This document shows, one piece after another, positions 2,146 through 62,488 of a stretch of 64,000 nt of DNA. The position numbers and the translations under genes were made by a program. The notes under the pieces are model-generated. The model was not told the DNA's origin. It saw only the letters and a program-made list of their open reading frames with translations, and did no database searches. Positions within the stretch are counted from its first letter, which is position 1; each line of letters begins with the position of its first letter. The DNA is from Nymphon striatum (lineage: Eukaryota): positions 438,555 to 502,554 of the forward strand of contig JABFOP010000159.1 in NCBI GenBank assembly GCA_016618385.1. The letters run 5' to 3'.

Positions 2146-3219
2146 CTTTGTTGTCTGTGTAACACAGTCCTCCATTTGGGTCCGGATGGCCTTGTAGCCT
2201 TTCAAAAAGCAGTCGACTGCGAGGAGCACATGTCCAACCCAGCGGGTACCACCTACTCTTGTTGGCATGATGTTCTTCATTTTCAGGCTTGAGAATGCAT
2301 TTCTCAGGTTTTCTCGTTGTTTAGGCGAGTTTCTATAGAAATAATACACACCCATCAACAATACAATACAAGAGTCGTACAGCTTTATGTTTTTTATACT
2401 GTCCTTGAAAGAAAGCTCTAGTCTGTGAGCTAGACAGTGGACGATTGTGACAGATGGCTGAAGATTTTTAAAGAAAGTTGCCACACCACCTTTCTTGCCA
2501 ACCATCACACTGGCCCCATCACAACCAAATCCAACTAACTTGTCAGTGATGGTGCTTTCTGTAACTTTCACGTGAGACAAACTTTCCATGATCGAATTGA
2601 AGATTCCTTCCGCATCTGGGCTTTTAGGGGAAGTGATGCCAGCAAATTCTGTGTAGATCTTGCCACCTATCACAAATCGCACAAATACAATCTCTTGTTC
2701 TGTGTACGACGAATCGGTCGAACTGTCTGAAGTGATTGAAAAGAAGTTTGTTTTTGAAATTTGTCCAGTTAGATCTTGTTTAGCCGATTCCGCTATATAT
2801 TTGGTAAATGTCCTGCACGAGGTTTCGTTTCTGTAGGTTTTACCAAGGGTAAGGCCTTTGACCTCGTCAAGTTCACACAACCACAGATAGTCTCTGAAAG
2901 ATTTTCGGTGTTTCGCCAGTGCATGCGTATTCCTGAACAATAGTGTTAATTTCTCTGAATTAGCTTTATGTAGCTGTAGTTGCGCAATCTTTGCTGGAGC
3001 CGTTTCAGGATGTTCTTTCCTCTTGATAATTTTGGTGGCTTGTACATGCGCGGAAGACTTTTCATGAAGGCTTATGCTTTCAGCTTTATAGCTGACACAC
3101 CCGCTGATAAATGTCCTAGACTTCAAAAGTCCTTGCCTGGATAACGCATCTTTGTTGTCTGTGCAAAGCTTGCACACCATCCCTGCCGCACTATCAACCA
3201 CGGTCGTCCGATCTGCCAC
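2146..3219 (-). CDS. hAT transposase gene, first coding exon in window (RNase-H-like catalytic region)
   Basis: The 363-aa ORF contains hAT hallmarks 'FSITSDSSTD', 'GFGCDGASVMVG' and 'HCLAHRLEL'. A strong donor 'ACAAAG|gttggt' at 2146 suggests splicing rather than termination at the in-frame stop at 2128. Confidence 0.7.
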
Positions 3220-3440
3220 TTGGGCAGAAACTTACGCACTCGTTTCGTTTTGTTGTATTGTTTGTCATATTGACATTTCTTGGCTTCAGGTGATTCACTT
3301 TGAGGTTTGGCATTAGAATCCGGAGAAAAATAACGTAATAACGACATTTTGGAAATAATGAGAAGAAGTTGTAAGTTTAAAGTTGTTGCAAAGTAGGCAG
3401 TAGGCACTATAGTGTGATGCTTTATATGAAATGACCACTC

Positions 3441-3470
3441 TATATAGAGTTGCTGGTGACGTCATCACCT
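3441..3470 (-). promoter_or_regulatory. Candidate promoter elements upstream of hAT gene: TATATA plus TGACGTCA (CRE-type palindrome)
   Basis: 'tatataga' at 3441-3448 and 'ggTGACGTCAtcacc' at 3455-3469 lie about 220-250 bp 5' of the minus-strand ATG at 3219. These are motif matches only. Confidence 0.2.
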
Positions 3471-4516
3471 CCAACTTTTGTGTGATAATGCATTCCTCCA
3501 AGGAATGTTGGGTCTAAAACTCTATCATGGGAAAAACATTTTTTAATTAAAATTCATTCTTCAGAATACACTAAGTGCTGTAAAAAGGGAGAGAGGTGTG
3601 GAGGGAAAACCAAAATCGAAGTAATACATCATGTAAAGTTGATAAACAGCAAGACAGGGTTACAGGAGGTTACAGGGGTGTTGGTTGACCTAAACAGGTC
3701 AGAAACTTTACAGAGTAAACTGAAAAGCGATGAACAATGGGGATTAGGGATGGAAGAAGTACTGCAACCACTAACTGCAACAACATAGTCCATCAAGATT
3801 TAAAACGGCCGATAAGAAAATAGGCTTGGCTATAACAGTTTGTGCCGCTCGGGATCCTGAATGTTTATTTGTTAGCATATTGTGTGTGGCAGATGTTTGA
3901 TTGATAGCAAGCTATAAGTCATTGGTACATTTTTGACTAAATTTGAAATTCTGAATTGTTGTTTTCACTTAGACCGAATTAAAAAGCATTTTCGTCCAGA
4001 AAAAATTTCCAGAAAAATAAATCTTTTTAAAATTTTTTAATTTTTTTTTTTTTGTCGATGTTAGTAACCTAAACATTAGGCTAAATAAGCAGTCGCCCGG
4101 ACGGACCATTGGGGGAGATTTAAGAGTCGCCCGGCCGATTTATTAGTCGCATTGGCGACCGGACGACCGTCTGTTTTGTACCCTGCCCCGTACCCCCCAA
4201 AAAATTTTAAAGCGCCCTCGGCGCTATTTTCATCCGCCTTCGGCAGATGTCATTTCAACTTCACATTTTTTTCAGGATTTTTTTTTGTAATCCACTTTCA
4301 TCTCTGGAAAATATAACTTCTTAACTATGTTGTGATCGACAGAATACAATTTCTACTTTTCTTATTGACTTTTTGATTGTATTGATACAATCTTTGATTA
4401 TTTTATGACCAGCATATGTAAAATTTTTAATGACATTGCCAAAAGTCACCATTTAGTATGTTAGATTTTTGAAAATATTAATTTACTTGTTATTTTTAAT
4501 TATTACCATTATTTAG

Positions 4517-4721
4517 ACACCATACACAAGCAGTGCAATCAGCTTCTTTACGAGCTGTTGGCAATATAGTTACTGGAGATGATCTTCAAACACAAGTTAT
4601 TCTAAATTGCAATGCATTACCATATTTATTATCACTGTTATCAAATGATAAAGAATCGGTCCGAAAAGAAGCTTGCTGGACATTGTCCAACATAACTGCA
4701 GGAAATCGTCAACAAATACAA
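4517..4721 (+). CDS. Importin subunit alpha (karyopherin alpha, KPNA3/4-like) internal exon, ARM repeats
   Basis: '[63 protein letters not shown]' is the canonical importin-alpha ARM block (..[17 protein letters not shown]...KEA.W..SNITAGN..QIQ). Acceptor 'tatttag' at 4510-4516, donor 'CAA|gttggt'. Confidence 0.8.
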
Positions 4722-5397
4722 GTTGGTACAAATGTTTCTCCATCTCTTGTTGCTTATTTAAATATTGTGTGATTTTTTTTAATTCAAATCCGTTGATAAA
4801 ATTTCTGCTGTTTGTGTGTTTTTCTTTAAATTGAATTGTATTCCCGAAATATCATTAATATAATTGGAAGGTGTGTGAATAACTGCTGAGAACGGCTAAA
4901 CACATAAAAATTTTATTTTTGATGAGTGCAAAATAATTTTTCACTGGATACCGAGAGAATTTTTTTCTACCGGAGGGATATACTGCAAAGGTTGTAATAA
5001 CAAATGTATAATGGCTATCTGATAATTCATGGTGCCTTGAGATATTAACATGTATCGCAACACTTAACTTGATTCAACACTTAACTTGACCTACAGGTTG
5101 ACATTTTCTTATTTGATACATTATTCTTGTTTTAGTGCAATGGAAAGACAGGAATTAGTAATTTTAGCCATTGTGGTCATTCTTCAATTGTGGAATATAA
5201 AACCATGTTGGCTTGTCAGGGTTACCACTTATAGCGAACACATATGTTGCTAATAGTTATCGAAAGGTAATGTGTAGTTCATTGTTGCAACAACTGACTA
5301 CACAAAGAAGAGAGATGAGAAGCAAAATTTGACAGATGAAATGTTCTGTGGTGTATTTAAAAAAAACACAATGCTTATTTATATTTAGACAAGTGAC

Positions 5398-17174: not shown

Positions 17175-20115
17175 TAGTAGTCCAGTAAATCTAGCGATAA
17201 TTAGGGCTGAACCTAGAACAAATTGCAATAGAAGGTTTTTTTGCTTTAACTTGTTTATTAGGTCCCTCTGATGAACATATAAAAAGTCTCCAACTTTTGG
17301 ACACCGGGAAATGGCTTAATTTGCATAAATTCAAGATGGCAGCCGTCCAAAGCTTCAATTTACAGATAACTTTTTTCTGGTTGCTCCTAGACCCTATAAA
17401 TGTATTACAATCAACGTTTTTTGGCTTTAACTTGTTCATTAGGTCCCTCTGATGAATATATAAAAAGTCTCCAACTTTTGGACACCGGGAAAGGGCTTAA
17501 TTTGCATAAATTCAAGATGGCCGTCGTCGAAAGCTTCAATTTACAGATAACTTTTTTTGCTCCTAGACCCTATAAATGTATTACAAACAACGTTTTTTGG
17601 CTTTAACTTGTTTATTAGGTCCGTCTGATGAACATATAAAAAGTCTCCAACTTTTGAACACCGGGAAAGGGCTTAATTTGCATAAATTCAAGATGGCAGC
17701 CGTCCAAGCTTCAATTTACAGATAACTTTTTTCTGGTTGCTCCTAAGACCCTATAAATGTATTACAAACAACGTTTTTTGGCTTAAACTTGTTCATTAGG
17801 TCCCTCTGATGAACATATAAAAAGTCTCCAACTTTTGGACACCGGGAAAAGGCTTAATATGCATAAATTCAAGATGGCCGCCGTCGAAAGCTTCAATTTA
17901 CAGATAACTTTTTTCTGGTTGCTCCTAGACCCTATAAATGTATTACAAACAACGTTGTTTGGCTTTAACTTGTTCATTAGGTTCCTGTGCTTAACATATA
18001 AAAAGTTTCCAATCTAATTCCAAAATTTGGGCGAGTTATAGCCATTCTTATATAATGTACCAAAAATAATTTTTTCGTTTGAATCTAATTTGTCGTTCGA
18101 TTAAAAAGTCGATTGTGAGTCGCCTATTGATCGTAATCGAATTTACATTGTAGGCAGGTTATAGAGCTTGAAGTAAGGAAGACAACTATGTGCGTCTTGA
18201 AACGCTATTCTAAAATGTTGGCCCGTTATAGCCATTCTTAGATCATGTACCAAAATGAAGGTTTTCGCTTAAATTTCATTAGTCATTTGATTAAAAAGTC
18301 GATTGTGAGTCGCCTATTGATTAGTAATTGAATTTGGATTGTGGGCAGGTTATAGAGCTTGAAGTAAGGAAGACAACAGTGTGTGTCTTGAAATCAAATT
18401 TCAAAATTTGGGCGAGTTATAGCCATTCTTATATCATGTACCAAAAATTAATTTTTTGTTTGAATCTAATTTGTCATTCGATTAAAATGTCGATTGTGAG
18501 TCGCCTATTGATCGTAATCGAATTTAAATTTGACGTATGTTATAGAGCTTGAAGTAAGGAAGACAACTATGTGCGTCTTGAAACGCTATTCTAAAATGTT
18601 GGCCCGTTATAGCCATTCTTAGATCATGTACCAAAATGAAGCGTTTTCGCTTAAATTTCATTAGTCATTTGATTAAAAAGTCGATTGTGAGTCGCCTATT
18701 GATCGTAATTGAATTTGGATTGTGGGCAGGTTATAGAGCTTGTAGTAAGGAAGACAACAATGTGTGTCCTGAAATAAAATTCCAAAATTTGGGCAAGTTG
18801 TAGCCATTCTTATATCATGTACCAAAAATAAAGTTTTTGTTAGAATCTAATTTGTCATTCGATTAAAAAGTCGATTGTGAGTCGCCTATTGATCGTAATC
18901 CAATTTGCATTGTAGGCAGGTTATAGAGCTTGAAGTAAGGAAGACAACTATGTGCTTCTGGAAACGCTACTCCAAAATGTTGGCGCGTTATAGCCATTCT
19001 TATATCATGTACCAAAAATATTTTTTTGTTTGAATCTAATTTGTCATTCGATTAAAAAGTCGATTGCGAGTCGCCTATTGATCGTAATCGAAATTGCATT
19101 GTGGGCAGGTTATAGGGCTTGAAGTAAGGAAGACAACTATGTGCGTCTTGAAACGCTATTCTAAAATGTTGGCGCGTTATAGCCATTCTTATATCATGTA
19201 CCAAAATGAAGGTTTTCGATTGAATTTCATTTGTAATTCGATTCAAAAGTCGATTGTGAGTTGCATATTAATCGTAATCGAAATTGGATTGTGGTCAGGT
19301 TATAGAGCTTGAAGTAAGGAAGACAACAATGTGTATCTTGAAATCAAATTCCAAAATTTTGGCGAGTTATAGCCATTCTTAGATCATGTACCAAAAATAA
19401 TTTTATTTTTTGAATCTAATTTGTCATTCGATTAAAAAGTCGATTGTGAGTCGCCTATTGATCGTAATTCCAATTTGCATTGTAGGCAGGTTATAGAGCT
19501 TGAAATAAGGAAGACAACTATGTGCTTCTGGAAACGCTACTCCAAAATGTTGGCGCGTTATAGCCATTCTTAGATCATGTACCAAAATGAAGATTTTTGC
19601 TTAAATTTCATTAGTAATTCGATTAAAAAGTCGATTGTGAGTCGCCTATGGATCGTAATTGAATTTGGATTGTGGGCAAGTTATAGAGCTTGAAGTAAGG
19701 GAAACAACAATGTGTGTCTTGAAATCAAATTCCAAAATTTGGGCGAGTTATAGCCATTCTTAGATCATGAAATTGAAGCTTCGGACGGCGGCCATCTTGA
19801 ATTTATGCAAATTAACCACTTTCCCGGTGTCGAAAAGTTGGTGACTTTTTATATGTTCATCAGAGGGACCTAATGAACAAGTTTACGTTGTTTGTAATAC
19901 ATTTATAGGGTCTAGGAGCAACCAGAAAAAAGTTATCTGTAAATTGAAGCTTTGGACGGCTGCCATCTTGAATTTATGCAAATTAAGCCCTTTCCCGGTG
20001 TCCAAAAGTTGGAGACTTTTTATATGTTCATCAGAGGGACCTAATAAACAAGTTTAAGCCAAAAAACCTTCTATTGCAATTTGTTCTAGGTCAAACCCTA
20101 CTTTTACTGGACTAT
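17175..20115. mobile_element. 2.9-kb composite non-autonomous element: long TIRs built from about 180-bp tandem subrepeats, enclosing an internal satellite array
   Basis: Left end 'agtccagtaaatctagcgataattagggctgaacctagaacaaattgcaatagaagg' equals the reverse complement of right end 20050-20113. There are 4.5 subrepeat units (+) at 17216-18000 and 1.5 units (-) at 19769-20075. The satellite lies at 18020-19768. Confidence 0.5.
18020..19768. repeat. Satellite array of about 185-bp monomers in alternating A/B variants (about 370-bp higher-order unit), roughly 9.5 monomers
   Basis: Recurring 'ttatagccattcttagatcatgtaccaaaa...gattaaaaagtcgattgtgagtcgcctattgatcgtaatcgaatt...ggttatagagcttgaagtaaggaagacaac'. 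The same satellite occurs at 57835-58702 and 63395-63700. Confidence 0.75.
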
Positions 20116-20908
20116 AGCCATATGGAAAATAATGGCTGAACTCCAAAATAATTTATACAAAAAGTTTTTTGGTTTTAAGTCTATCAGTGGATCATAAATT
20201 AGTCCAAAAGAGAAGTCTCCCAAAATTTGACCCCGGGAATGTGGTGGGAATTTGCATAAGTTCAAGATGGCGCCCTCCTAAAATGTCAATATACTACAAA
20301 CTTTTCACTGGCTCAATTTAGATCCTATAAATGTATTATCGAGGATCATTTAAAGTTTTGTTAACCTGAAGCCAAGCCAAGTTTGCTCAAAGGATATGAA
20401 AGCTTCTAGCCAGGACCATATTTAGGTCTTGTGCTTAAAAGGATTGGGTGTAAAAAATAAAATTTCCAAACCCATAGTACATATATCAAACAACAATTCC
20501 TGATACGCCATCATTTAATATCATCCTCGGCTCGAATCGATACGGTTAATAACTTCCATAATTATTAAAAGTATCCTCTCTCCACAAATCTATATAAGCG
20601 AGAGCAATCTGTTGGGGAAATGACGACATGACTGACGTGTCTGTCCACAATGGCAGCTCCAACGTAGTTGATACGTTTAAAAATATTAAATGAAGTAGAA
20701 AAAAAAATGTTAAAATCACGAATTGTTGTTTGATAATGTATAGGGTCCAATACCCATCCACCCTCTGCTGTGTTGAGGAAAAGTTCTCTCTCTCTCCCGC
20801 TGCATAATAGCATGCGACGTCATGTTCTGTGAGAAATTTTCCTCAACATAGCAGGGGCTGTACTATGGATTGGGAAATTATTTGTTTACTCTTATTGAGT
20901 GGATTATC

Positions 20909-21324
20909 AAGTCAAGTCAAGTTATATATATCAAGTCAAGTTATTGAGAGTCTTATCAAGTGCCCAACACAGTATGGAAAGGAAGATCCTAGGTGTGAGC
21001 TGGAGGGATAGAAAGACTAACAGTTGGGTGAGGACACACACAGGGTGTAAAGATTTGACCCAGACAGTGAAGTGTAGTAAGTGGAACTGGGCCGGACACT
21101 TGTCCCGTAGAACAAACGATAGGTGGACCACTAAATCCACAATGTGGATAACAGATAGGGGAGGAAGAAAACGGGGTAAACCGAAGAGAAGGTGGGTGGA
21201 TGATATAGCTAAGTTTGATAGGGATTGGGTGGAAAGAGCTGCCGATAGAGAGGACTGGAGATCTAGACGGGAGGCCTTTGCTCAGCAGTGGGCCAATATG
21301 GGCTGATGATGATGATGATGATGA
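20909..21324 (+). mobile_element. 5'-truncated RTE-clade LINE 3' fragment with (GAT)n tail and 14-bp target-site duplication
   Basis: ORF tail '...SMERKILGVSWRDRKTNSWVR...RGGRKRGKPKRRWVDDIAKFDRDWVERAADREDWRSRREAFAQQWANMG' is the conserved RTE ORF2 C-terminus. It ends in 'tgatgatgatgatgatgat'. The direct repeat 'ttgagtggattatc' lies at 20895-20908 and 21325-21338. Confidence 0.65.
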
Positions 21325-21540
21325 TTGAGTGGATTATCCCTTTAAGTGAAAGAAAAGCCTAATGTGGTTTTCTGATCTTGAAAAACGTGCAAAATTACTT
21401 GAAGATATGTTTAGAAATATTTTGTGTCTGCAATCAGTGAAATTTGAGAGCACTTCCAAAATTAAAAGTTAAAGAGAGAACTACTGACTGACTGGCTGAA
21501 ATAAATTAGCATTAAGTTGGCATACGGAGCTCCTCACTCT

Positions 21541-21547
21541 TATAAAT
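21541..21547 (+). promoter_or_regulatory. TATA box (TATAAAT) about 45 bp upstream of the TRIM-NHL ATG
   Basis: 'cactcttataaatcgctg' is positioned appropriately for a short 5'UTR. Confidence 0.3.
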
Positions 21548-21591
21548 CGCTGTCTTCTTTCTCCTTTTCATTCCCAAGCAAAGTACTGAAA

Positions 21592-22866
21592 ATGGCAAGT
21601 GTTGTTCACGAGGTCACATCTTCTCCTTGCATAGAATGTCAAAAACCCGTTGTGAAGGGGTGTCAAATTTTAACATGCAATCATATATCTTGCAGACAAT
21701 GTTTACGGAAGACAAGCACTCAGAAACACCCCCGGAGTCTACCAGTTGTTTTCTGCAAAACGTGCAAAAGATCTGTAGCAGCAATCGACGAAGAACGAAA
21801 AAGGTATGATTGCAACATTTGTGGCAAGAAGCAGACAGTTCTGTGCGAAAACTGTGCAATGTTTTTCTGCAATCGTTGTGTCTTGACGTTGCATGTCGAT
21901 CCAAGAACCAGAGACCATTTTTTCTTAAGTTTCACAACGAAGTCTGGAAATTCGGCAAATAAAGTTGCTGACACTGGTGTTATCCCAAAAGAATGTCCAG
22001 ATAAAAGCGTACGGTTCTTTGGGAGCTACGGTACCGCTGATGGAGAATTCGTCTGCCCAAAAGGAATTTGTTCAGATCACATGGGACGAATAATAATTGT
22101 GGAAACTTTTAATCACAGAATACAGGTCTTTGACAAGAATGGTAATTTCCTGCTCAAGTTCGGCAGCCTTGGCAACAAACCAGGGCAGTTCAAAACACCT
22201 ACTGGTGTTGCCAGTAACTCCGAAGCACACATAATTGTATCTGACAGTGGCAACAACAGGATACAGATCTTCAATGCATATGGTGATTTCATCCACGAGT
22301 TTGATGGCTGTGGTAGTGATGCAGACAAATTTAACAGGCCATTGGATGTTTGCGTGAACGAGAATGATCAAATTTTGGTTGCAGACTTTAAGAACCTGCG
22401 TGTCCAGTTGTTCACCAGAGACGGTATATACATTTACTCTTACGAATTTGATAAAACCTTCGCCGCATTTTCAAACTCTCCTTTTGAGCCTCAAGGTGTG
22501 TTCTCAAAAAAAGGCAAATTTTTCGTTACCGATGTTAGGAAAAGCCTGTACGTCGTACTAGACGAGAAGCTGGAAACTGCAAGATACTTTGGAAGACTTG
22601 TTTCTTGGAATGGGGCGTACATGAATCCAAACGGCATAACCGTAGACGAAAAGGGGCGCAGATTTTTAACCGATTGTATTAGCCGTGGTATACAAGTTTA
22701 TAGAGAGGATAATGAATATTTAGGCCTCATTAATACCGATATGGCTAGCCCATCTGGTATTTGTTTCACAGCAGAAGGCGATTTGATAGTCAGCGATTCT
22801 GGTTGCAACAGGATCGGAATATTCAGCGAAGAGTTCGTCTATAGAATATTGGAAAGTTTTAAGTAA
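21592..22866 (+). CDS. Single-exon RING / B-box / 6xNHL-repeat protein (TRIM-NHL-like E3 ligase family)
   Basis: RING: 'CIECQ...CQILTCNHISCRQC...VVFCKTC'. B-box: 'CNICGKKQTVLCENCAMFFCNRCVLTLH'. Repeated NHL blades: 'GQFKTPTGVASNSEAHIIVSDSGNNRIQIF', 'FNRPLDVCVNENDQILVADFKNLRVQLF', and so on. It is an uninterrupted 424-codon ORF. Confidence 0.75.
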   Translation: MASVVHEVTSSPCIECQKPVVKGCQILTCNHISCRQCLRKTSTQKHPRSLPVVFCKTCKRSVAAIDEERKRYDCNICGKKQTVLCENCAMFFCNRCVLTLHVDPRTRDHFFLSFTTKSGNSANKVADTGVIPKECPDKSVRFFGSYGTADGEFVCPKGICSDHMGRIIIVETFNHRIQVFDKNGNFLLKFGSLGNKPGQFKTPTGVASNSEAHIIVSDSGNNRIQIFNAYGDFIHEFDGCGSDADKFNRPLDVCVNENDQILVADFKNLRVQLFTRDGIYIYSYEFDKTFAAFSNSPFEPQGVFSKKGKFFVTDVRKSLYVVLDEKLETARYFGRLVSWNGAYMNPNGITVDEKGRRFLTDCISRGIQVYREDNEYLGLINTDMASPSGICFTAEGDLIVSDSGCNRIGIFSEEFVYRILESFK

Positions 22867-30245: not shown

Positions 30246-32389
30246 AAAACATTTCCATAATTCTATATTCCGTGTACCCACACCAACCCCACGCCAACCC
30301 ACGTGACATATCCGGTTTAAGCCAGTATGCCAAGAACAAGAAAAGGAAGTTATCAAAGTCCTATATATACCCTAAAAAAATCTTTGAATTATTATCTGAT
30401 CTCCAGACCTAAGAGTGAAAGTCACTTTCACTTTTGTTGAACTCTACTATCGAATTCTCGACGATGTAAGTAAATTCTTTTTTCTTTGGAGTATCTCTTC
30501 TGTCTTGGAAGAACTCTACTATAGGGACTCATCCCTCTTACCATATTCACAAACCCCCTTTTATGACAAACCTTGAAACCACCCATAACCCCTGCTTAGA
30601 CTCCGGATTAACTCTGGAACGGACTAAAACGTCCATAAGATCGGACCCTGAACCGAGAATCACTTTGGGTTAACCATCCCTATTAATTCACCCATTTATG
30701 TATTTATCAAGTAACCACCTATCACTATAATCATTTTGAAATTGTTGAATTATATCTTTAGTAGAATTTTATCACTTATGTATGTAACCAAATTTTCAAC
30801 TATTAAACCAATCATTAAAATGTCACACTAACTCTTTCATTCCGGGCAGTAATGAAGAAGTTCATAGATCCATATTAGACTGTGGGGCAAGAGCAAATTA
30901 ACCATTCAGAAAACAAGTTTCGTAGTCCCATCAACGGCAGAGAAAACTAACTATACTAATTGATTGTGATGAAGCTGCTGATGAGAAAAAACCTTTGTTC
31001 TCCAAATTTCGTGCACCCGTTAATGAGATAATCCGCTAATTAGTTTTTAGCATTTTAACAAGAATTCCTTGAAAAAGACTAGCCTTCTCATGCCCGTAGC
31101 CAGGATTTTTTATGGGGGGGTGCCTTTTTTCGAATATAGGGACCAGTTTCAAGATGAAAGTATATAGAGAATACGATGTGGTCGTGTTTGGTATCCTGTT
31201 TATCACATAATCAATAGATAGCTTTAAAAATTAAGTAAAATTAATTTAAAATAGATTCAGTTTGAACAAATGTATAAAGAAAATTGTAAGGTTTTATCAA
31301 AGAGCCCTCCGGCCAAATTATTATAAACATTTTCCGATCTGTCACCTCTTTAAAATGCTCGTAAATAAGTTAAATTACACTGTTGAAACCCCCCGGTCAA
31401 ACCATTAAAATGGGGACCTGGTCAAGTCAAATTCAATAAAAGCATCTGAGTAAAATGGAAAACCATTAAGAAAACTAATAGATAAGAGCCATTTGACATT
31501 TTTCAAGATTATTGCCACTTTAAATCGGTTACCCATTAAAAACATCTCTCACCGTTAAGAAGTTAATCGTTTTATAACACGTTTTTATACATGTGTTTAT
31601 ACCATTTTTAGGTCCACTGAGATCGGTAGAATAACCGCCCTATTATGTGATAAACATTATTATCTGCAATGATGACAAGGTCGAGGGACAAAATTGCAAC
31701 TGCAGCTCAACTGGGCAAGCAAGCTCTCTACAGGAAATTAAAATTGCCCAGAAACACAAAAATGAGCGAGAATCTAAAAATATTTATTTTTGAAAAATTT
31801 TTTAAAAGTGCATATTCAAGTGTAATTTTTCAAAGTGGACCTTTGGCTGTTTTGTGGGGGGGGGGGTGCCCAGGCACCCTAAACACCCCCTCTGGCCACG
31901 GGCATGCTTCTTCTTTTCAAAAAATGGTACAAGTTTTTCCTCAGGAGCCTGTAGAGTGCGCTCTCTGGTCTTTTTTTACTGTCTTTTGCCTGTCGTTTGT
32001 CGAGTCCATAATGGGACGAGAACTTGCAGCTGATCTGTGCTGAATTGCGATGCCGTTGGTATTGTGTGTAGTGCCTCTTCCTGAGAGTGTCTCCTCACCA
32101 AAGTCATTGTTATCCCACACAAGTGTTGTAAAAACACTTTCTTGGAGGCATGACGGCAACTTGGATCCACCAGTACGGATTTCCTGCTTGGCCAATGCAG
32201 TGTCATCTTCCAGTGCCAAAGTATGAGACGTTGCATGATTAAAACCATTAAGAAGACCAATCAGATGGGCCGAGCCGGTGAGATGTCGAACAGCCATGGC
32301 AAGAGAGGTGAGTTTTGGCATTGGTTTTCTTCCCTTTGAAGCTAAGTATATCACGTCTTGAGATATCGAAAGAGATATCAAAAATTTCA

Positions 32390-32960
32390 GATAGCTTTGG
32401 AGTCTTTTCAAATTTCTCTAAAATGTTTCGAAAACAAAATTTATATTAAAAGTTGGCGATAGCTTCGCCGTCATTTCAAAAATTTCAGATAGCTTTGCCA
32501 TCTTTTCAAATTTCTCTAAAATGTTTCAGAAACTAAGTCCACACTAAAAGTTGGCGATAGCTTCGCCGTCATTCCGAAAATTGCAGATAGCTTCACCGTC
32601 ATTTTAAAAATTGGCGTGAGCTTCGCTGTATTTGTTAATTTCTATGAAAAATTTCAAAAATGAAGTCGACTTACGGCAGCCCCAAAACGTTAATTTTCTT
32701 GGACAAAATGTCAATATAAAAATTGGCGATAGCTTCACCATCATTTTAAAAATTGGCGAGAGCTTCGGTATATTTGTTAATTTCTCAGAAGAACTTAAAT
32801 AACCAAGTCGACCTACGGCAGCTACAGAACCAACAACTTAATTGTTTTGGAAAAAATGTCAACGTAGAAAGTTGGTGATAACTTTGCCGTCATTTCAAAA
32901 ATTGGCTATAGCTTTGCAGTCTTTTCTTTAAAAAAGTCCACATTAAAATTGGTGATAGCT
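32390..32960. repeat. Satellite-like tandem array (about 65/130-bp periodicity)
   Basis: Recurring 'aattggcgatagcttcgccgtcatttcaaaaat' / 'tcagatagctttgccatcttttcaaatttctctaaaatgtttc' units. Confidence 0.55.
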
Positions 32961-33136: not shown

Positions 33137-34612
33137 CAGGGGCGGATCTAGGAATTTTGAAAGGGGGGTGGCTAGGATAGGAATTTTCCTTCACCTATCG
33201 GCGTGCGTTTTTGAGAAACAGATCATATTTTGGTTTCTAAATTTTACTCAAAATTAAAGATAAACCATTTCGATTTTGTAGCTAGATTACAATAAAAAAC
33301 ATAATAATAATATTTAAAAAATAACACACAAAAATATACCATTGCTATAAGTATAATTCATTACTTCAAGTATACTGTTGCGTCTAAATCCTTAAGTTCA
33401 AAATTAATGGTAGTCTAGTAGTCACAAAAAGCATGATGTTGCAGTTTGACAAAAGTAGGCCTACTACAACGAGAAAAGACTTTGTCCCTGCTGTCCATGG
33501 ATGTAATGTAATGAAGCGGTTGACAATTTCCTCAGTGGAAACAAGGATATTACCATGCATGGCAATCACACAAAGGTCTGATAATCTATCTGTGGACATA
33601 AATGACCGAAGCCATGAGTGAATACGCCGCACACAAGAAAAGGACCTTTCGGCTTCACAGCTTCCAAGTGGCAATACTGCAAGAATGCTCAGCAACTCCC
33701 TGATATTTGGGAAAAATGTAGTGTCTGCATGATGCTGAATCAAATATGTAACTCATGAAGATGAAGAAACCTTTTTGAGGTTGTTGCTCAAATGCTGCCA
33801 TCTAAGAAGTTCATTCATACTAGTAGTAATAAAATATATGTATTTTATTGGTATAAACATATCAGGTTTTCTCTATGAGCAGGGCGACATCTAGTTCAGC
33901 TGCCGGCCGCCGCGAAATTTTTTCTCCAAAACGAAAATTAGGTCGTCTGGAGCAAACCTCACGTGATTGGATGCCGTGAGGTTTGCTCCAGACGACTTAA
34001 TTTTGATGAAATCGTATGGGAAAAAAAATTTCGCGGCCGGCAGCTGAACTAGAAGTCGCAATTATCATAGAGAAATCCTGATAGGCACTAAAATCCACTT
34101 TCCCAAGCGAAATTGTGGTCAATTTTGAAGATTTTATTTGCAAAATGACGACTGTTTCCCCCTCTATCGGAAATTGAATGAACAATTACTGTTCACTCGT
34201 CCAAATCGAGCCAAAACTGGGATTTCCGGAGACGCGCGAAAATCGTCGCTCAATTTGGTATCAGAAAAGGAAAAAACACACCAACTTCAAAATCGTTTTC
34301 CCAAACGAAGAAAAGAGGAAAGTTAATGAAATGTTTTTCTTCAGAAAGAGGAAAGCGCAGTTGTTCCGAAAATGAATGAACAATATGTGTGAAGTAACGG
34401 ACAGTTTCTCAGTTTACACTTGAAAATTTCCGTAATAGAGTTTCCCATTGATCTTTTGGGATGCTGAATCAGCCGAAATGAACGTTCGTTTCATCGATGC
34501 TGCCGTATGTTCCCATAAAATCTGATATGAAAAATACTATAAAAAAAATATATTTTTGGGTTGCAAGGGGGGGTGGCTAGCCACCGAATCCACCCCCCTA
34601 GATCCGCCCCTG
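33137..34612. mobile_element. Non-autonomous hAT element (TIR CAGGGGCGGATCTAGG) retaining only a hAT dimerisation-domain remnant
   Basis: Termini 'caggggcggatctaggaattttgaaaggggggtggctag' and 'ctagccaccgaatccacccccctagatccgcccctg' are inverted. The internal minus ORF 33384-33743, '...ILAVLPLGSCEAERSFSCVRRIHSWLRSFMSTDRLSDLCVIAMH', is a hAT C-terminal domain. Confidence 0.65.
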
Positions 34613-38998: not shown

Positions 38999-40326
38999 AG
39001 GCATGTAGTGACTTGTATTGCTTTTATTATTATACAAAATAGTGTGACGTCACTGCTTATGCTACCCTCCCAAATAACCAACCTATACATGTATGTTCTT
39101 AATAAACTTAAGAGCAGTCGTCGTCTAGCTTCTCACTTCTATTAAGAATATATAGAAGATATCAAATTGGAACGAATTACATATCCTTTATATCACATAA
39201 TATCTTTAAAAGATTTAAAATAATTAAAAAACAACTTATGGATTTAATTTCCATTTAAACATTTTTATATGTGACCAAACGACTCAATTTGTAGCATTGG
39301 TGTATAGTATAGATTACAATAATCCGCATAAAAATAGTCTCATTAATTAAGAGATATTTAGCAGTTCTGCAAGAAAATATGTTAATATGAAATATATTTT
39401 GAAATTGGTAATATCAATAACAATTATGCCTGAAACATATAATATTTAACAAATAATTGAACAAACAATTTATAAAATTCATAGTTAAAAGCTTGACCAT
39501 TCATTCATTCATTCATTCATTCGTGAGTGTAAAATTCTTTGTCATTTCCCTCGCTTTCCTATTGGCTTAGAACCCGAACATATTGTCGTCTGCTTTAAGC
39601 ATTTTCAAAACAGATCAAAAAATCAAGGTGAATTAAATACTTCTTTTATTATAATAAATATTATAAATAATATGAATGTTTATATTAGCCAGTAAAACGT
39701 GGCATATAAATAAGTGTGTGTCGGTGTATAAGAAATTCAATTAAAATGTAAACGCCAACCAAGTAATCAATTAATAAACAAAGTATTTTTAGTGCATAGA
39801 AGCATTCAAATCTAGCACATAGCATAGATCGTAGCCCATAGCATAGGCCATAACCGTTGTAATTCTTTCGTTTTAACTCATTCAGATTTTCGGTTTAATA
39901 TTCATCCAAAATGTTATAACAAAATGAATTCCCATTTAATATGAGATTTATAAAACTAGCCAACATTATATTTCAGCATAATTACATGCATAAATACGTA
40001 CGCCCATATTATGCCAATACATAATAACAAAATAACAAAATGGCTGTTCTTTTACTGTGCGCGGAAGAATATTTTATTCCTTTTCTTCATCAGCATTCTG
40101 TCTAGAGAGAGAGAGAAAAGAATTTATATTACACTCTTCCATAGGATTAACCTTGTTTTTTTTTCCATTTTATTTTTATTACACACGTTCACTATTATTA
40201 AACCGTAAACACGCCCATATTATGTGATATACATGTATAAAGTATGTTATTTGGGAGGGTAGCATCAGCAATGACGTCACAATATTTAATATAATAATAA
40301 TAACAATACAAGTCACTGCAGGCATT
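38999..40326. mobile_element. 1.3-kb element with about 95-bp TIRs containing TGACGTCA palindromes, internal (CATT)n
   Basis: 'gcatgtagtgacttgtattgcttttattattatacaaaatagtgtgacgtcactgcttatgctaccctcccaaataac' is the reverse complement of 40231-40326. (cattcatt)n lies at 39503-39530. The right TIR is absent from the duplicated copy at about 50300, where (AAT)n occurs instead. Confidence 0.45.
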
Positions 40327-41256: not shown

Positions 41257-44200
41257 TTAACTGACATTATAATTATTAATAGAAAAAAATAGTGAAAGTG
41301 CTTTACCTCCTTCTGGTTTCAGACATTCAATAATCTTACTGACGGAGTAAAGAGATATTTTATTTCCACATTTTGTGCATACAATTTCCATATGATCTTT
41401 CCAAGCTATGTAAAATGCATCATGTTTACATTTGTAACAAATGAAGTAACAATCTTGTCTCAAACCGGGAACAGTTTCGATTGATTCAGAAATCATCTGG
41501 TATATTTCAAAAAGAACGTTCCTAAGTTCTTTTTTGTTCCCTTTTTTTAAGAAGAAAACTTCCATGCTGACACACATTGTTCCATAATCACATTCGCTCA
41601 TTGTTATCATTGCTTTCATACAGTTGAGATGCATAATGATTCCTGCTCGCCATGTAATGGTCAATTGACAGTCATTACAGCTTATAAGACCATAAAGTCT
41701 AACGATGATTTTAGACATAATTTCTGGGCATGAAGGTATATTTCTAAAACGAATTTCATATGTGAAATAACCCTGTTCTACAGATTCTTTAAATACTTTA
41801 AATTTGAGGTCATTTTTTAAATCTTTCTTTTGATAACATGGGAAAACATATTGTCGTCTTTCACACAAAATACTTGTTTCGTCCTTGAATTTTAATCTAT
41901 AACAACATTCTATCTTTTCCAAGAAGCCCAAAAGATGCTTTGTTTCCATTTCATTTTGGAGGTAATTTTGGATAAGCACTTCTAGTATAAGTTCAGATAA
42001 AACTCCTTCCTTAAGTAAATCCAGCATTTTATGTAGTGTTTCCGGATCTATATTCAGTTTATTTGCCTTTTCGTTTAGTGTTTCTAAAAGACCTTTAGTC
42101 AATGAAAATAATTTAAAGAAGGTTTTTTCTTTTGAGAACAAAGCTTCCAAATCATGGTGGAAAAGACTTCTAAGGTATGATATAAGAACTGCAGGACGAT
42201 GAAATATGACTTCTTCATGTTCTCTGGGTCGATGACGAATAATTTTTCCAATTTCTTCCAAGTATGTTAAAGTGACTTCCACATCGCTTAAATTCACTAT
42301 CTTTGCATAATCGCATGCCATTTCTTTTAGAAATATAAAATGAACAACTATTTTCTTTCATAACAATTTCTTCAAATCTATTCCATGAAACTGGTGTTCT
42401 TCTTAGAATTTTCTGCTCATCACTCATATAAAATTTTTGAACTATATCTTTGACTTTTTTAACGCTGATATGCATGGTATTCAAGCAATTAATTGGTAGA
42501 ACGTCTATAATTACTGGCATTAACATTTTCGGATGGTCCTACACATCTCTTTATTTCTATATACTCATTCCATCTAATTTTTAACCAATTAATTCTTATT
42601 TCAAGTAATGTTTATATTCAATCTTGTCAACATGCGATGCCAGTATTATAACGTGTGCATTTGAAACGTAAGAAGTCAACATATCACACCACCTACCAAC
42701 CTGAGTATGAAAAGACTGTTTTGAATAAATGGATATGTCCACAACTAGTATGTAGATAGAATTTTTTGAAAAGAAGAGGCAATGTGTTGATTCGTAGATA
42801 TCCTGTCCAGCTAGATCGTAGAATTTCATATTCATTTGGATCTCCGACAAATACACTTCATAATATCCGATCCACTCGTGTTCTTTCGGGTGATCTCGTG
42901 AAATGGCCGAGCATGATAGTTATGCATGAAACTTGTCTTGCCTGACAGGCTTTTCGCCCAGCATGACGATTCTAGCTTCAGGTTCTTTGTAGATTATTTC
43001 ATATGAATCATGTAAGTATTTTTTAATACCATGAAGTCCCAAGTTTAAAATACTCTCTTGTGGATAGATAAAAGGATTACCTTCATACAAAAAAGTATGC
43101 ACGCTATCTGGAACCGCTTCAAAGCAAAATGTTTTCAATTCTATTCTTCGAAATGTCCAATGATAGTTAACGTTTCTGTGATAACAACTGATTCAATGTT
43201 GTCGATCTGAAGTATAGCGTTCTGCTGCATTGATAAGAATTTCAACAATTTCAATACCAAATATTTTATGTGATACACTGTTTCATTCTATTATTGGACA
43301 CATCAATGTTTTCCTAAAAGGATTAAATTATAGATACTATCTGGAATTTTTTCTATTTTATTTTGGCTTAGATTTATTTGTTCGAGGTTTTTCAGAGAAT
43401 CAAATAAAGCCTCTGATACATTAGTGATCCCAGTTTTACTCATATCCAAAACTTTGAGATTTGGCAAGTCCACATTATATTGTTCTAAATTTGGGAGATA
43501 ACAACACGACAAATTTAATTCCTGTTAAACTTTTCATCCGAAAAATATACTCAGGAACATAATAATTACTTCCTTTTAGAGAAAATTTTTTCAGTCTGGT
43601 TAAATTAGTTGGAGGAGGAACAGCAATGATTAAAAGATGATTAGAATAGCCGTCAACAATCTTATCCTGCAGAGACAGGTTTTCGACAATTTCCATTAAT
43701 TTGGTACAATCAGCCAATTTTAACTTATTTCCAGACAAATTAACGTACTTTAAGCTATCAGGAAATATTATACTTGAAATTGAGTCAATGATCATTGTGA
43801 TCTAGCACATAAATTAATTAAGTTTTTTAATTCAGATATTTCATCTGGAATAATTTTGATTGCATTTCTTGATATATATAAATTTTGAAGCTTTTCCATG
43901 TATTTTATATCGGAAGGAAGCTTTTCAATCATATTTTTTGATAGATCTAAGTGAAAAATATTCGTTAACTTGAACAGATCATTAGGAATTTGCTCCAATC
44001 TATTATCATATGCAATAAGCTCCTGCATATCTTTCATATTTAATAAAGTTTCAGGTAGATGTTCTAGATAGCAACATGAAATATTTAAGTGCGTGATTCT
44101 AAATGAACTAGGTGAGTTAAAAACGTTGGCTTTGACTTAAAAGACTATGATAAATGGTATCAGAATTAGTATCGAACAATCCGTAACTTTGGAAATTAGC

Positions 44201-44700
44201 TTTGAAATTTCCCGAATATATTAAATTATTTGAAGCATCTAATTTCTTTAAATTTGGCATTTCGAGAAACTTATCGATAAGTAATACAAGTTCACACCCT
44301 GCCATGTTCAGCTCCTCAACTTGTTGGAAACTTAAAACAATTGAGGTCACATTAATATCTTCTGTGTACGCTTTGAAACAGAGATATATTCTTTTAGTTA
44401 GGAACTCAAATGATGATAAATATGGTTTAAATGTTGGATGATCGCTTTTACAAAATTCGACAAAGTCACTTGCTTCGTACAGTGAGGAAATGTTTTTCCA
44501 AATCTCTTTACAACATTCTGATGCATACGCCTCTGAGATATTTAACTTTTCTTCATCGATTGTGAATATCTTTCCAATTTTATGTTCATAGAAATTACAT
44601 TTATTATTTGAGATCTCTTGTTCAAATTTTTTCACTTCTTTTACTGAATGTTTTGCTGAACAAATACGTCCATATTGACATCTTAAGAGTATTTTATGGT
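41257..44700 (-). pseudogene. ROCO-family gene copy A (LRR / Roc GTPase / COR; MFHAS1-like architecture), disrupted
   Basis: COR-like 354-aa ORF 41257-42321. Roc switch-II 'KFYDLAGQDIYESTH' and G4 'IILASHVDKI' in 42596-42856. The P-loop region is degenerate ('RIVMLGEKPVRQDKFHA*'). LRR segments ('LDLSKNMIEKLPSDI', 'LNLSQNKIEKIPDSI') lie in several frames at 43303-44037. The N-terminus 44117-44635 is homologous to copy B. Confidence 0.6.
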
Positions 44701-45246
44701 ACTAAATAACTTTAGAAGATTTTAATTGATGATAATGTTGTTGCCTAAATTACTATCACATATCACAAAGAAGATATGCAAACTTCCCACACGTAGATAA
44801 AAAGCACAGTATTTGAAAGTGTGTGAAGGTTCACTATTTCATTCTAGCAGATAGAAATTCAAGACTCAGAAGTAAGCCCTTGTCATTTGAATGTAGAAGC
44901 ATACTGCTGTCAATCGAAATTAATAAATTATTGAAAACGATAATGGAATTCAATGGACACATTTGATACTTACTTTGTATCAGCTGATAAATCTTGAAAT
45001 AATCACTAAATCAAAGTATATGTGAACTTTTATATAGAAAACGAATACGGAATTATATTCCAACACAAGAGATTGGTATACACATTGGAAATAATGTTAT
45101 CAGATAGGGTGAAGAAATATTAGAAAGCTAAGTGTCTCAACAATTCTTATTGCAAATAATGAACCATGTTGACATAGGTTGTGTATTTTAACATACAATG
45201 AAATAAACACACAAATGCTGGTATGTATGCATATTTGAAAACACAG

Positions 45247-45758
45247 ATAATGGGGTACTTTGGAACTAAAAATCCAGATGGCGCAATGTAGCTGTTCAGG
45301 TCATTTTGAAAAATCCAGGAACTTCAAGTCTTCAACTGTGTTTGTTGTGTTGTTCGATTTTACGCAGGTTATAAGCATTTTTTTCAAAATCAAAATCAAT
45401 TTCTTCAAAATGCCAAAGAACAAATACGAACGAAAGAGTTTAAATGATTTAAAGATCACATGTTTCCGAGAGACCTTATAAATTGATAGGTTGCCACTTC
45501 TCTCTCTTAATTAATTAATTGCCACCTTCCACGATTGAAATCGTGCATGGGTTGACCACGGAAATAAATGGACAGACCTGTTCTTGCACATAGGCACGCG
45601 ACATTCGGTTGGCATGATGTGAAATTGACAAAAACACCCATAAACTCAGTAACGCTAGCACAACACAGTGTTAAATTATCAGAGGCTGACCTGATCTGCG
45701 TCGCAGCGCCATCTGTACAATCATCATTTAACAAGGTTGGATGGTAAACATAAAATAT
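45247..45758 (-). mobile_element. MITE family C copy 2 (abuts the 5' flank of ROCO copy A)
   Basis: Reverse complement of the 5398-5958 element. The terminal 'ataatggggtactttggaactaaaaatccagatggcgc' lies at 45247-45285. Confidence 0.55.
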
Positions 45759-45818: not shown

Positions 45819-48162
45819 CAGGGGCGGATACAGGGGGGGGGCGGATTGGGTGGATGTCCACCCCCCTCTTTCGAGGTGCCAACAATAAAAAATACACACA
45901 TTTTAAAGAAATGAAAAGAATAAATCTGATTGCATGTCGTCTCTCTTTCATAAAATATGTATATGTTAAATTATTCAACTCATAACTCATCGATTCATAT
46001 TGAATTCTGACTGTTTGCACATTTAGACAGACATCTTGAGCCGTTTCTCATGCAGCGGCGCTGGCCAACAGGGACAAATGTACGCATTTAATGTAGAATT
46101 TGCTTAAATACCCAAGGAAAATTAAAACAAGTTCATCACCATTTTATGTCTTGTTGCAGAAACCAACCTTGATCTTAAAAAAACATCTCATATCTGGACC
46201 AGTAAATGCATACTACACAAGCAAAAATGTAAAAAATGAAATTATACACAAGTAATGGCTGACTTTTCTGAATATTTCGAATATTTCCGTATTGAAGCTA
46301 ATCCATTGAAGCTAATCCCCACTTTGCATTGATTGCCGACGAAACAACAGCACAGGGTCGTAAGATTTTGTCAGTGTGTCTTCGAATGACTTTTGTGACC
46401 TGCCTAGAACAATTGGATCAGTTATAGCCACCACAATACTGGACAGTTTACGAAGACATAAGATCGACGTAGCAAATTGTTGTGGCCAGGCGTACGACAC
46501 AACTGCGTCTATGAGCTCCGACTAGAAGGGAGTTCAAGGAACAATTGCAAAGTATGCACCAGACACAGAGTATCACGGTTGCGCCCTTCAGTCACTAAAT
46601 CTGGTCATCTTCCATGCCTGTAAGATCAAATAAATTCAGAATATGATGGATAGTTGCCGTGAACTGTACATTTTCGTTGAAAATTCTCCAAAAAGACAGA
46701 GAGCAAAAAACGAAAGTTGAAGAATCTATGCAAAACAATCGTGTAAAACAAGACGACACTCCACATTTAAAACCATATTTGATTTGTACGGGTAGCCTAT
46801 ATCGTCATCAAGCTAAATGAAATCTGTGATCCAACCAATAATGCTCATTTTTACCCAAATGATGAAGAATGTAGCTGGAATCCAAAAACTAAGTCACATT
46901 GGCAAATAGACTGCAACATACCATGACAAACTTTGACCATATTTTCAACTTGGTCTGTGCGAAGGAAATGGTGGAACCAATTTGACCACCTGTTTATTTC
47001 CTTCATGGCCGCCATGTAGAATTATATTTTGGCTATACAAAATTGAAGACACCACGAGCTTGACAATACCTGTTCTAGACATAATATGTTCAGAACTAAA
47101 ATGCCAATTCAGCAAGAATGTGCGAGTACGCCATGAGCTGTGTGCTCTCATTCCTACAGTAAGTGTCACTAAGTCTTCTGAAAGCATGACTGAACTTGCC
47201 AACGTACTGCAAGAGAAATGGGATCACGTACTTCCAGTCTCATCAGCCTTTGGACACGAAATGTTTTGCTGGAACAGTTACTGTAAGCGACAGGCCTTAG
47301 GCGAAACCTCTGTAACGTGACTTTTGGCCAAACATGCTGATAGCATATTATTTTCGAACATCCGAGAGTTACTCAAGATTCTTGCTGTATTGCCAATTGA
47401 TAGCACGGAAGCTGAGCGATCGCTCTCCTGTGTAAAGAGAATACGCACGTGGCATAGGAGTACCATAACAACAGAAAGACTTTCAAACGTTTCTCTTATT
47501 GCGATGCACAGCCACTTTGTCTGCATTACTAGAGGACAGGTATGTGAAAGATATCCGAAAGATATATGGCAATGCATCAGAGGAGTGTATAATTCTTGAT
47601 AACATCTTACGCCAATTGCGTTCGATTTCTTCTCTGTTGGTCACTATTTCGACATCTGCGTTTTTTAATCTATTACCTATACAGTTAATCTTTTCTTGGC
47701 CGTCTTATATCCTTTCTCTTCTATAAGTGTGTGGTGAAGATGCACACAGAGTGTAAAGATTTGACCCAGACAGTGAAGAGTAGCAAGTGGAACTGGGCTA
47801 GACACGTGACCTGTAGAACAGACGATAGATGGACCACTAAAACCACAATTTAGATAACAGATAGGGGAGGAAGAAAACGTGGGAACCGAAGAGAAGGTGG
47901 ATGGATGATATAGCTAAATTTGACAGTTATTGCGTAGAGAGAGCTGCCGATGAAGAGAACTGGAGATCGAGAAAGGAGGGAGGCCTTTGCTCAGCAGTGG
48001 GTCTAGTTTGGGGCTGATGATGATTTATTTCCAGGTGTCAATAATACCAGGATTCGATAACTACCATTTCTGGACGCTCATGTAGAATAAATACCTTGAA
48101 GTGTTGAAGGAGTTTTGAATAATAATATCCACCTCCCTTTTTAAAATCCTGGATCCGCCCCT
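45819..48162. mobile_element. Degenerate autonomous-type hAT element (TIR CAGGGGCGGATMCAGG), same family as 33137-34612
   Basis: 'caggggcggatacaggggggggg' at the left end and 'cctggatccgcccctg' at the right end. Internal + strand frames give 'FALIADETTAQGRKILSVCLR', 'GQAYDTTASMSS', 'YHGCALHSLNLV' and a C-terminal 'ILAVLPIDSTEAERSLSCVKRIRTWHRSTITTERLSNVSLIAMH' with stops. An RTE tail fragment is nested at 47727-48025. Confidence 0.6.
46260..47600 (+). pseudogene. hAT transposase pseudogene (internal to the 45819-48162 element)
   Basis: RNase-H-like motifs and the hAT dimerisation domain are recognisable, but interrupted by stops and frameshifts. Confidence 0.5.
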
Positions 48163-57150: not shown

Positions 57151-57224
57151 AAAGTATAAAAATCCAAATAATTAAATTCTAAAATAGGAACAATATGCAA
57201 AAGGTACAACAGGTAATATGATGA

Positions 57225-57760: not shown

Positions 57761-57834
57761 GTTCCTGGACCTTCAATTAGTGGATTTTTGAAAAGTTTAG
57801 CTCTGGACATAAAGTTGCATACAAAACCACCATG

Positions 57835-62413: not shown

Positions 62414-62488
62414 GTATAAGGACACGTCCCTATATATATCGTATAAGGACACGTCCCTATATATATCGTATAAGGACACGTCCCTATA
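62414..62488. repeat. 26-bp tandem repeat x3 (gtataaggacacgtccctatatatatc)
   Basis: Read directly in the sequence. Located inside the composite element. Confidence 0.7.

Follow-up and report, generated by a model that had tools for sequence, protein, structure and literature searches.

A probable non-autonomous Academ transposon with subrepeat-built arms and a satellite interior in the sea spider Nymphon striatum

We analysed a 64-kb stretch of the genome of the sea spider Nymphon striatum (contig JABFOP010000159.1, positions 438,555 to 502,554; hereafter, the window), and every statement made below about this species refers to that window. At 17178-20114 it carries a non-coding unit of 2,937 bp, here called copy 1, in which an array of a 190-bp satellite is enclosed by long terminal inverted repeats (TIRs) that are themselves built from a 181-bp subrepeat. 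Judged by its termini, its 3-bp target-site duplication (TSD) and the proteins of its relatives, copy 1 probably belongs to the AcademX lineage of the Academ superfamily, as a non-autonomous DNA transposon of the cut-and-paste kind. The original prediction, made from the sequence alone, had proposed a transposon-like unit with long subrepeat-built TIRs and a satellite interior; Tandem Repeats Finder (TRF), an inverted-repeat search, the termini and the TSD all bear this out.

Boundaries and arms of copy 1

Copy 1 was delimited to 17178-20114 because inverted termini lie at these positions with TAG on both sides. Its ends read 5'-TAGTCCAGT...ACTGGACTA-3'; the terminus TAGTCCAGTAAA at 17178-17189 (+) is found inverted at 20103-20114 (-), so that the 3' end reads TTTACTGGACTA opposite the 5' TAGTCCAGTAAA. 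An open reading frame (ORF) check of the whole element found none longer than 82 aa. The parts of copy 1 are as follows.

17175-17177: left TSD copy, TAG, read directly; an identical TAG follows the right end
17178-17234 (+): left terminal domain, an 'A-type' end, 5'-TAGTCCAGTAAATCTAGCGATAATTAGGG..., from the terminus search
17235-18013 (+): left arm, four 181-bp units (L1-L4) and 60 nt of another, from TRF, unit alignment and profile matches
18014-19769 (+): interior, 190-bp satellite, non-coding, from TRF, monomer alignment and the identity matrix
19770-20067 (-): right arm, 1.65 inverted units (R2 partial, 19770-19886; R1 full, 19887-20067), from inverted-repeat and profile searches
20068-20114 (-): right terminal domain, a 'B-type' end, ...CTAGGTCAAACCCTACTTTTACTGGACTA-3', from the terminus search
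20115-20117: right TSD copy, TAG, read directly

In the left arm TRF reported 4.3 copies of a 181-bp unit (17235-18012, 92% matches, score 1351) and also a two-unit period of 357 bp, the units alternating between two variants. By profile search the units start at 17235, 17416, 17592 and 17773, and the 60-nt partial unit ends at 18013. The TIR measures about 0.35-0.84 kb with unequal arms of 4.3 and 1.65 units, and its longest inverted pair (17199-17417 and 19885-20103) spans 219 nt at 96% complementarity. Unit R1 matches L1 and L3 and unit R2 matches L2 and L4, so the two arms mirror one another. The consensus state GAAAGTGGTTAATTT is retained in R2 and has been lost from the outer units of copy 1.

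Several dimensions in the original prediction needed revision. It had given the left arm as 4.5 units of 180 bp at 17175-18000, where the array is real but consists of 4.3 units of 181 bp at 17235-18013. The 1.75-kb centre is an A/B satellite array as described, with a monomer of 190 bp by TRF instead of 185 bp. An inverted unit is present in the right arm, for which 19769-20115 had been given, but the units occupy 19770-20067 and the element ends at 20114. The outermost 60 bp had been described as matched, and the word ctagaacaaattgcaatagaagg is indeed found at both ends (17214-17236, inverted at 20067-20089); the true termini lie about 35 nt farther out.

Each arm unit (e.g., 17311-17336) includes a 25-nt motif, ATTTGCATAAAT(T/C)CAAGATGGCCGCC, composed of an octamer-like box and a YY1-like box, which may be a promoter module. 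The same motif is present in otherwise unrelated tandem repeats of 155-158 bp in MOXH01 contigs (L010, 1114-1445; L085, 689-1031).

Relatives of the arms in other hosts

A search of metagenome contigs with a 21-mer from the arm matched more than 120 contigs, which is a lower bound. The loci numbered L001-L120 are Joint Genome Institute (JGI) metagenome contigs (e.g., sample 3300027544), from sample ranges that are probably metagenomes of gutless marine oligochaetes. Around the 21-mer, the similarity of the matched contigs to the arm extends over more than 180 nt and takes in the terminal domain. Because the arm-bearing contigs share nothing else with the window and differ from it in mean GC content (43% versus about 35%), they come from different hosts.

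The ends in these contigs are of two types, of which A is the counterpart of the left end of copy 1 and B that of its right end. Against a consensus built from 41 A-type ends, the left end (17178-17434) has an identity of 93.4% over 259 nt; for the right end (19885-20114), set against the consensus from 31 B-type ends, the value is 96.1% over 230 nt. Among the matches listed, the metagenome copies have a median identity of 96-97% to their own consensus. The original prediction had proposed a check for TSDs at other copies: five complete and independent relatives were recovered, all of which combine an A-type with a B-type end and have a perfect 3-bp TSD (ATC, TTA, CAT, CCA, and CAA, respectively).

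The flanks of 44 distinct insertions showed only a mild A/T preference and varied at all positions beside TAG. The varied 3-bp TSDs of the relatives indicate that the duplication is 3 bp long, TAG for copy 1, and not TA. A TA duplication of the Tc1/mariner kind, which the window by itself would have allowed, was ruled out by the 44 variable flanks together with the 3-bp TSDs of the complete copies. An 8-10-bp duplication, as in hAT, MULE (Mutator-like element), or P transposons, was ruled out by the flanks of copy 1, which when read directly had no match of 7-10 bp.

Relatives of 203-260 bp in four loci (L021, L041, L044, and L086) qualify as miniature inverted-repeat transposable elements (MITEs). 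The original prediction had applied the same term to the present element, which at 2,937 bp is well beyond the limit of under about 800 bp; only the short relatives in other hosts are of MITE size.

Probable assignment to the AcademX lineage

Animal AcademX elements are flanked by 3-bp TSDs, have a 5' pyrimidine and a 3' purine at their termini, which are typically 5'-TAG(T/A)C...G(A/T)CTA-3', and encode one large protein that unites a transposase with an XPG nuclease and a Cys8 finger (Kojima, 2020; PMC7165386). Copy 1 has both the 3-bp TSD and the pyrimidine and purine at the expected ends. Its termini are essentially those of Academ-6_ADi (TAGTCCAGTCA...TGACTGGACTA) and may be compared with those of Academ-7_ADi and Academ-4_ADi; the Academ-6_ADi element of the coral Acropora digitifera is given as TAGTCCAGTCATTTT...AAATGACTGGACTA with TTA on each side (PMC7165386, suppl. 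1).

To the termini and TSD we can add the coding remnants of the relatives. Five Academ transposase domains (PMC7165386, Data S3) served as the reference set, and they matched just inside the arms in L091, L015, L013, L029, L030, and L073, with E values down to 1e-20. All of these transposase fragments are partial, and an intact autonomous copy was not recovered. The reference domains also match the window at 59866-60279 (E 1e-13 to 1e-20), within a 601-aa ORF (59845-61650) that represents a truncated Academ transposase/XPG/Cys-rich protein, and they align over their whole length with homologues of this ORF (E 1e-25 to 1e-59). Homology to the XPG-like and Cys-rich C-terminal part of the ORF was found inside the arms of 15 family loci, including the complete copy L108; a sixteenth match, in L076, is not an arm-bearing copy. 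The gene fragments had no consistent orientation relative to the A-type and B-type ends.

The nuclease was recognised mainly through its predicted structure. Sequence searches of Pfam and the PDB gave no domain for the 601-aa ORF, and the sequence match to an XPG-type nuclease was weak (EXO1 at E 0.07). An AlphaFold model of the protein P0202, which is 55% identical to the protein encoded beside the arms, has a mean predicted local distance difference test score (pLDDT) of 79.8 and matches EXO1, FEN1, Rad2/XPG, and GEN1 (43 PDB chains at E <= 1e-3, each with a 5'-nuclease fold). An alignment of the relatives' proteins has eight nearly invariant cysteines at the C-terminal end. On the strength of the model and the alignment, the relatives' proteins are predicted to contain both the XPG-type nuclease and the Cys8 finger, copy 1 itself being non-coding. 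With termini, TSD, transposase, nuclease and cysteines all found, the family has the full set of AcademX features.

Another contig, L116, holds a different 2.8-kb element (2297-5124) with termini TAGACAGGTC...CCCGTCTA, the TSD ACC and an XPG-like fragment inside, which is a second AcademX-type family in that host.

One alternative is that copy 1 is a classical foldback element, like FB and Tetris of Drosophila (MULE type) or Galileo (P superfamily); TSDs are 9 bp in FB and 7 bp in Galileo. Copy 1 does have the repeat-built, unequal TIRs of foldback elements, and its terminal flanking domain, unequal tandem subrepeats and non-coding middle domain recall Tetris in particular (PMC4079207). However, it has neither a 7-10-bp TSD nor a MULE- or P-type transposase: its TSD of 3 bp contrasts with the 8-10 bp of Tetris (PMC4079207), and its termini and associated protein genes are those of Academ. 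We regard a classical foldback element as very improbable.

The original prediction had also likened the element to Helitrons and asked for a check of 5'-TC...CTRR-3' ends. A rolling-circle vehicle of Helitron or Helentron type with central satellite repeats, as in bivalves, would share one thing with copy 1, namely the layout of central tandem repeats in a non-autonomous element (PMC7492417). Copy 1 ends in TAG...CTA instead of TC...CTRR, has a 219-nt TIR and a 3-bp TSD, and shows no hairpin in its last 70 nt (minimum free energy -1.8 kcal/mol, z +1.4), and its relatives encode a DDE transposase of the Academ/AcademX kind, not Rep/helicase. A rolling-circle origin is thus hardly credible, and the Helitron-like label was dropped in favour of AcademX.

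The satellite interior

TRF resolved the interior of copy 1 into 9.2 monomers of 190 bp (18016-19769) with a 381-bp A/B higher-order period, the monomers following one another as A B A B A A B A B. The A and B types are 83% alike. Monomers of the same type are 92-93% identical within this array (array 1), 90-91% within a second array in the window (array 2, described in the next section) and 89-90% between the two. Because of these levels of identity, and because a variant segment beginning AATTTGAC... is common to both arrays, the A/B organisation must be older than either array. Array 2 has also undergone recent turnover, its monomers a2_1 and a2_3 being 98% identical. Head-to-tail monomers, variant types, higher-order structure and two arrays in the window together characterise the repeat as satellite DNA.

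Look-alike words at both junctions had raised the suspicion that the satellite and the arm unit are kin. The idea was rejected, since the homology between monomer and arm unit was not significant in either orientation (z <= 2.4). The satellite was not found in 421 kb of arm-bearing metagenome contigs, and a two-anchor monomer pattern had no matches in metagenome or viral contigs.

A second, older copy and a third fragment

Satellite blocks near 57.8 and 63.4 kb had been noticed in the original prediction and are real, but its view of them as free-standing did not hold: a 4.69-kb TIR element has split what is one array, which has a diverged arm with its terminus as its right boundary. The relevant features are listed below.

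57848-58702 (+): array 2, first part, 4.5 monomers of the A/B satellite, from TRF, alignments and junction reading
58703-63390 (+): TIR element inside array 2, 4.69 kb (4,688 bp), from junction reading and the TIR search
63394-63691 (+): array 2, second part, 1.6 monomers, from junction reading and monomer alignment
63692-63921 (-): copy 2 right arm and B-type terminus, one diverged inverted unit, ...TTGACTGGACTA, from the terminus search and local alignment
20124-20338 (+): copy 3 fragment, one diverged unit in left-arm orientation adjoining copy 1, from the profile search

Array 2 breaks off at satellite coordinate 272 (58702) and resumes at 269 (63391). Since the satellite is in register across the insertion and TTA is duplicated at 58700-58702 and 63391-63393, the two blocks are a single split array. 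The inserted element has 35-nt TIRs beginning GGCCAAA... and carries the 601-aa ORF introduced above. Its outer TIRs begin with GGCC, as against the usual TAG of Academ, and the ORF is flanked by separately inverted repeats of 165 nt and 203 nt (59024-59376 versus 61614-61982) in an order that is not that of TIRs. The GGCC TIRs may be those of the Academ element itself or those of a transposon that carries it.

To the right of array 2 lies a diverged, inverted arm unit at 63768-63921 that ends in the terminus TAGTCCAGTCAA at 63910-63921 (-). This unit had been anticipated in the original prediction, which placed it at 63890-63960. The first 160 nt of the copy 1 left end align, from the first terminal base, to the reverse complement of 63768-63921 with a score of 51 against 18 +/- 2.5 for shuffles (z = 13), and the arms of the two copies are 62-69% identical (69% by blastn); no confident alignment to the arm was obtained for 63692-63767. 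By length and sequence the right end of copy 2 is B-type, as is that of copy 1, and the satellite is oriented alike in both copies relative to this end. Both of the two satellite arrays in the window are therefore associated with these termini. The original prediction would have been abandoned had no second terminal structure existed; the presence of one beside the other array makes the element a plausible satellite vehicle. We conclude that a second, older copy, later struck by another transposon, has the array at 57.8-63.7 kb for its interior.

The surroundings of copy 2 have further repeats. The segment to its left, 57150-57847, is a separate local repeat. Within 57248-57720 and 55764-56189 versus 56764-57186, a repeat of ~200-370 bp lies immediately left of array 2, in the place where a left arm of copy 2 should be, and an inverted duplication of 94.9% identity surrounds XPG-like ORFs at 56072-56551 and 56524-57150. 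The left side of copy 2 appears rearranged. A GGCGGCCAT box is found just outside the copy, at window positions ~63955-63975.

The third copy is a fragment next to copy 1. A single unit, for which 20200-20340 had been proposed, was confirmed by a profile match at 20167-20338 (E 8e-18), with a weak extension to ~20124 (z 5.5), and is 73-78% identical to the copy 1 units and to the metagenome consensus. We attempted to reconstruct an 'empty site' in which copy 1 had inserted into the terminus of copy 3, and the terminal part gave no significant alignment.

Weighing the composite unit and its origin

A number of observations count against the assignment of copy 1 to a mobile AcademX element that has carried its satellite. 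A single complete copy has come from N. striatum, and its TSD is identical to the first three bases of the TIR, while a 3-bp match is expected by chance in 1 of 64 cases. An autonomous element sharing these ends was not found in N. striatum, Nymphon proteins account for none of the best 120 homologues of the family protein, and the Academ elements present in the window (58703-63390 and a fragment at ~32.0-32.1 kb) belong to other families. In copy 2 no left arm was detected, 57150-57847 being unlike any arm or inverted right arm. Finally, copies 1 and 2 share only 62-69% identity in their arms but 89-90% in their satellites, so that simple joint descent is insufficient without later homogenisation or chimerism.

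Some of these points suit a different explanation, in which arms and array never formed one mobile unit: a pre-existing array would be flanked by two independent, oppositely oriented and truncated insertions of one and the same transposon family, or by the products of an inversion or palindromic rearrangement, and the composite would never have transposed. The arm/satellite junctions are asymmetric, with the left arm ending at position 60 of the unit and the right one at 127, and their positions differ between copies 1 and 2. The divergence of the arms between the two copies is also out of step with that of the satellites. Fragments of the family also cluster locally, with copy 3 directly abutting copy 1. 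On the other hand, no satellite adjoins copy 1 outside its arms, and the composite pairs an A-type with a B-type end, as every complete relative does, and has a matching 3-bp TSD. Its arms mirror each other variant by variant, and copy 2 repeats the layout, with a B-type right end and the satellite in the same orientation. We consider assembly from separate insertions unlikely and retain a single transposable unit as our interpretation.

Within that interpretation, the discordance between arms and satellite can be accounted for in two ways. The arrays are 38 kb apart in the same orientation, and turnover or exchange between them would have kept the satellites alike. Alternatively, copy 1 would be a chimera whose young arms, from a recently arrived and possibly horizontally transferred Academ lineage, took over the interior of an older resident element with the satellite, through template switching in gap repair or through recombination. 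A family that is abundant in other hosts has a consensus to which the copy 1 ends are 93-96% identical, whereas the resident older copies 2 and 3 are 62-78% identical to it; the satellite is still ~90% identical between arrays, and neither the 421 kb of contigs from other hosts nor the scans of metagenome and viral contigs contained it. Concerted evolution of two nearby arrays would explain the discordance with no need for a chimera, and recent turnover in array 2 is seen in its near-identical a2_1 and a2_3 monomers; we hold the chimeric origin to be rather doubtful.

The near-identity of the arms to a consensus from other hosts makes them a candidate for horizontal transposon transfer. It is conceivable, though we would not presume it, that an AcademX arm lineage was exchanged horizontally between the sea spider and unrelated marine invertebrates and was then coupled to a resident satellite as an active vehicle for seeding arrays. 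If true, satellite dispersal driven by a transposon could be dated and traced in this lineage, which belongs to a superfamily never before linked to satellites.

How such an element might arise and move

The relatives give some indication of how the arms were built. Most relatives have the 181-bp segment once in each arm: among the matches listed, 105 of the 118 loci with a unit match show a single one. The consensus of single-unit relatives has a 24-nt direct repeat, GTTTTTTGGCTTTAACTTRTTTATT, on either side of the segment, on which unequal exchange or slippage could readily act. L007, a locus from another host, contains a tandem array of 3.4 arm units. The arm units of copy 1 may have multiplied in this manner, by unequal exchange or slippage between the 24-nt repeats. 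The coding interior of the family has been replaced in copy 1 by the 190-bp A/B satellite array.

An AcademX protein with its DDE transposase, XPG-type nuclease and Cys8 finger would recognise the ends of copy 1 in trans, excise the whole unit and reinsert it with a 3-bp duplication. The internal satellite would thereby be carried to new loci, where the array could expand, contract and be homogenised by unequal exchange and conversion. From two linked copies we infer that arrays may have been seeded by transposition; mobilisation in trans, transport of the satellite and its later local expansion would be the successive parts of that process.

Other features of the window

The 601-aa Academ ORF has consequences beyond this element. 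At least 40 N. striatum gene models (among P0121-P0199) hold it at 86-98% identity, under names such as solute carrier 23 member 2, CCR4-NOT subunit 6, sorting nexin-12, protein O-mannose kinase, and greatwall kinase. The public annotation of N. striatum is contaminated by the ORF of a recently active Academ transposon.

A further Academ transposase fragment, from the N-terminal part, lies at 32037-32123 (-) and is 79% identical to Academ-2_SP over 29 aa. Near it (32378-32593 and 33384-33743 (-)) are a 98-bp tandem repeat of 2.2 copies and an ORF with a weak match to the hAT dimerisation domain. Between copy 3 and an intronless TRIM/NHL (TRIM71-like) ORF at 21517-22866, which is 100% identical to an annotated N. 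striatum protein, an ORF at 20899-21306 (+) resembles in translation the C-terminal end of the reverse transcriptase of long interspersed nuclear elements (LINEs), with no Pfam domain; a second LINE-like copy at 47726-48024 is 86% identical to it. A direct segmental duplication (41295-45251 versus 50506-54442; 3.9 kb, 93.7% identity) contains leucine-rich repeat (LRR) and COR-like ORFs of a ROCO/LRR-type family, and pieces flanking it are also doubled (39177-40134 and 49322-50247). Rfam and tRNA scans found no RNA genes in the window.

Comparison with known systems

We know of no Academ family described from Pycnogonida, nor of any description of a transposable element or satellite from this group. 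Copy 1 provides a clean, delimited example of a satellite array that a cut-and-paste transposon could move, together with a decayed second copy. It adds Academ, a superfamily that has been little studied, and Pycnogonida to the groups in which satellite carrying is seen. Genome-wide searches that ask whether arrays of this satellite are born inside transposons can use as their keys the terminus TAGWCCAGT, the 181-bp unit and the 190-bp monomer.

Copy 1 is closest to the AcademX elements (Kapitonov and Jurka, 2010; Kojima, 2020; PMC7165386), and among them to Academ-6_ADi and Academ-7_ADi, in its 3-bp TSD and its termini, 5'-TAGTCCAG...CTGGACTA-3'. The relatives of its arms carry gene fragments for the Academ DDE domain, the XPG-type nuclease and the eight conserved cysteines. 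Unlike those elements, copy 1 codes for nothing, derives its TIR from an amplified 181-bp subterminal unit and has a satellite for its interior; a link between Academ and satellite DNA is not described in that work (PMC7165386).

In architecture the nearest counterpart is Tetris of Drosophila virilis (PMC4079207), which also has a flanking domain, subrepeats of ~200 bp unequal in number between the arms and a non-coding middle, and which likewise clusters, has rearranged copies and contributes to the origin and dispersal of satellite DNA. Tetris belongs to another superfamily, with a TSD of 8-10 bp, and its satellite is the TIR subrepeat itself (PMC4079207), whereas the 181-bp subrepeat of copy 1 is unrelated to the 190-bp satellite. 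The bivalve pearl/CvA-type elements and the Helentron-associated Cg_HINE (PMC7492417) resemble copy 1 in having a central satellite-like array in a non-autonomous element and in offering a route of dispersal; they are rolling-circle elements that lack long TIRs or TSDs, in contrast to the DDE cut-and-paste type of copy 1. Because satellite vehicles are already known, the novelty is modest: this foldback-like, satellite-carrying non-autonomous Academ element is a known kind of vehicle that is new for its superfamily and for sea spiders.

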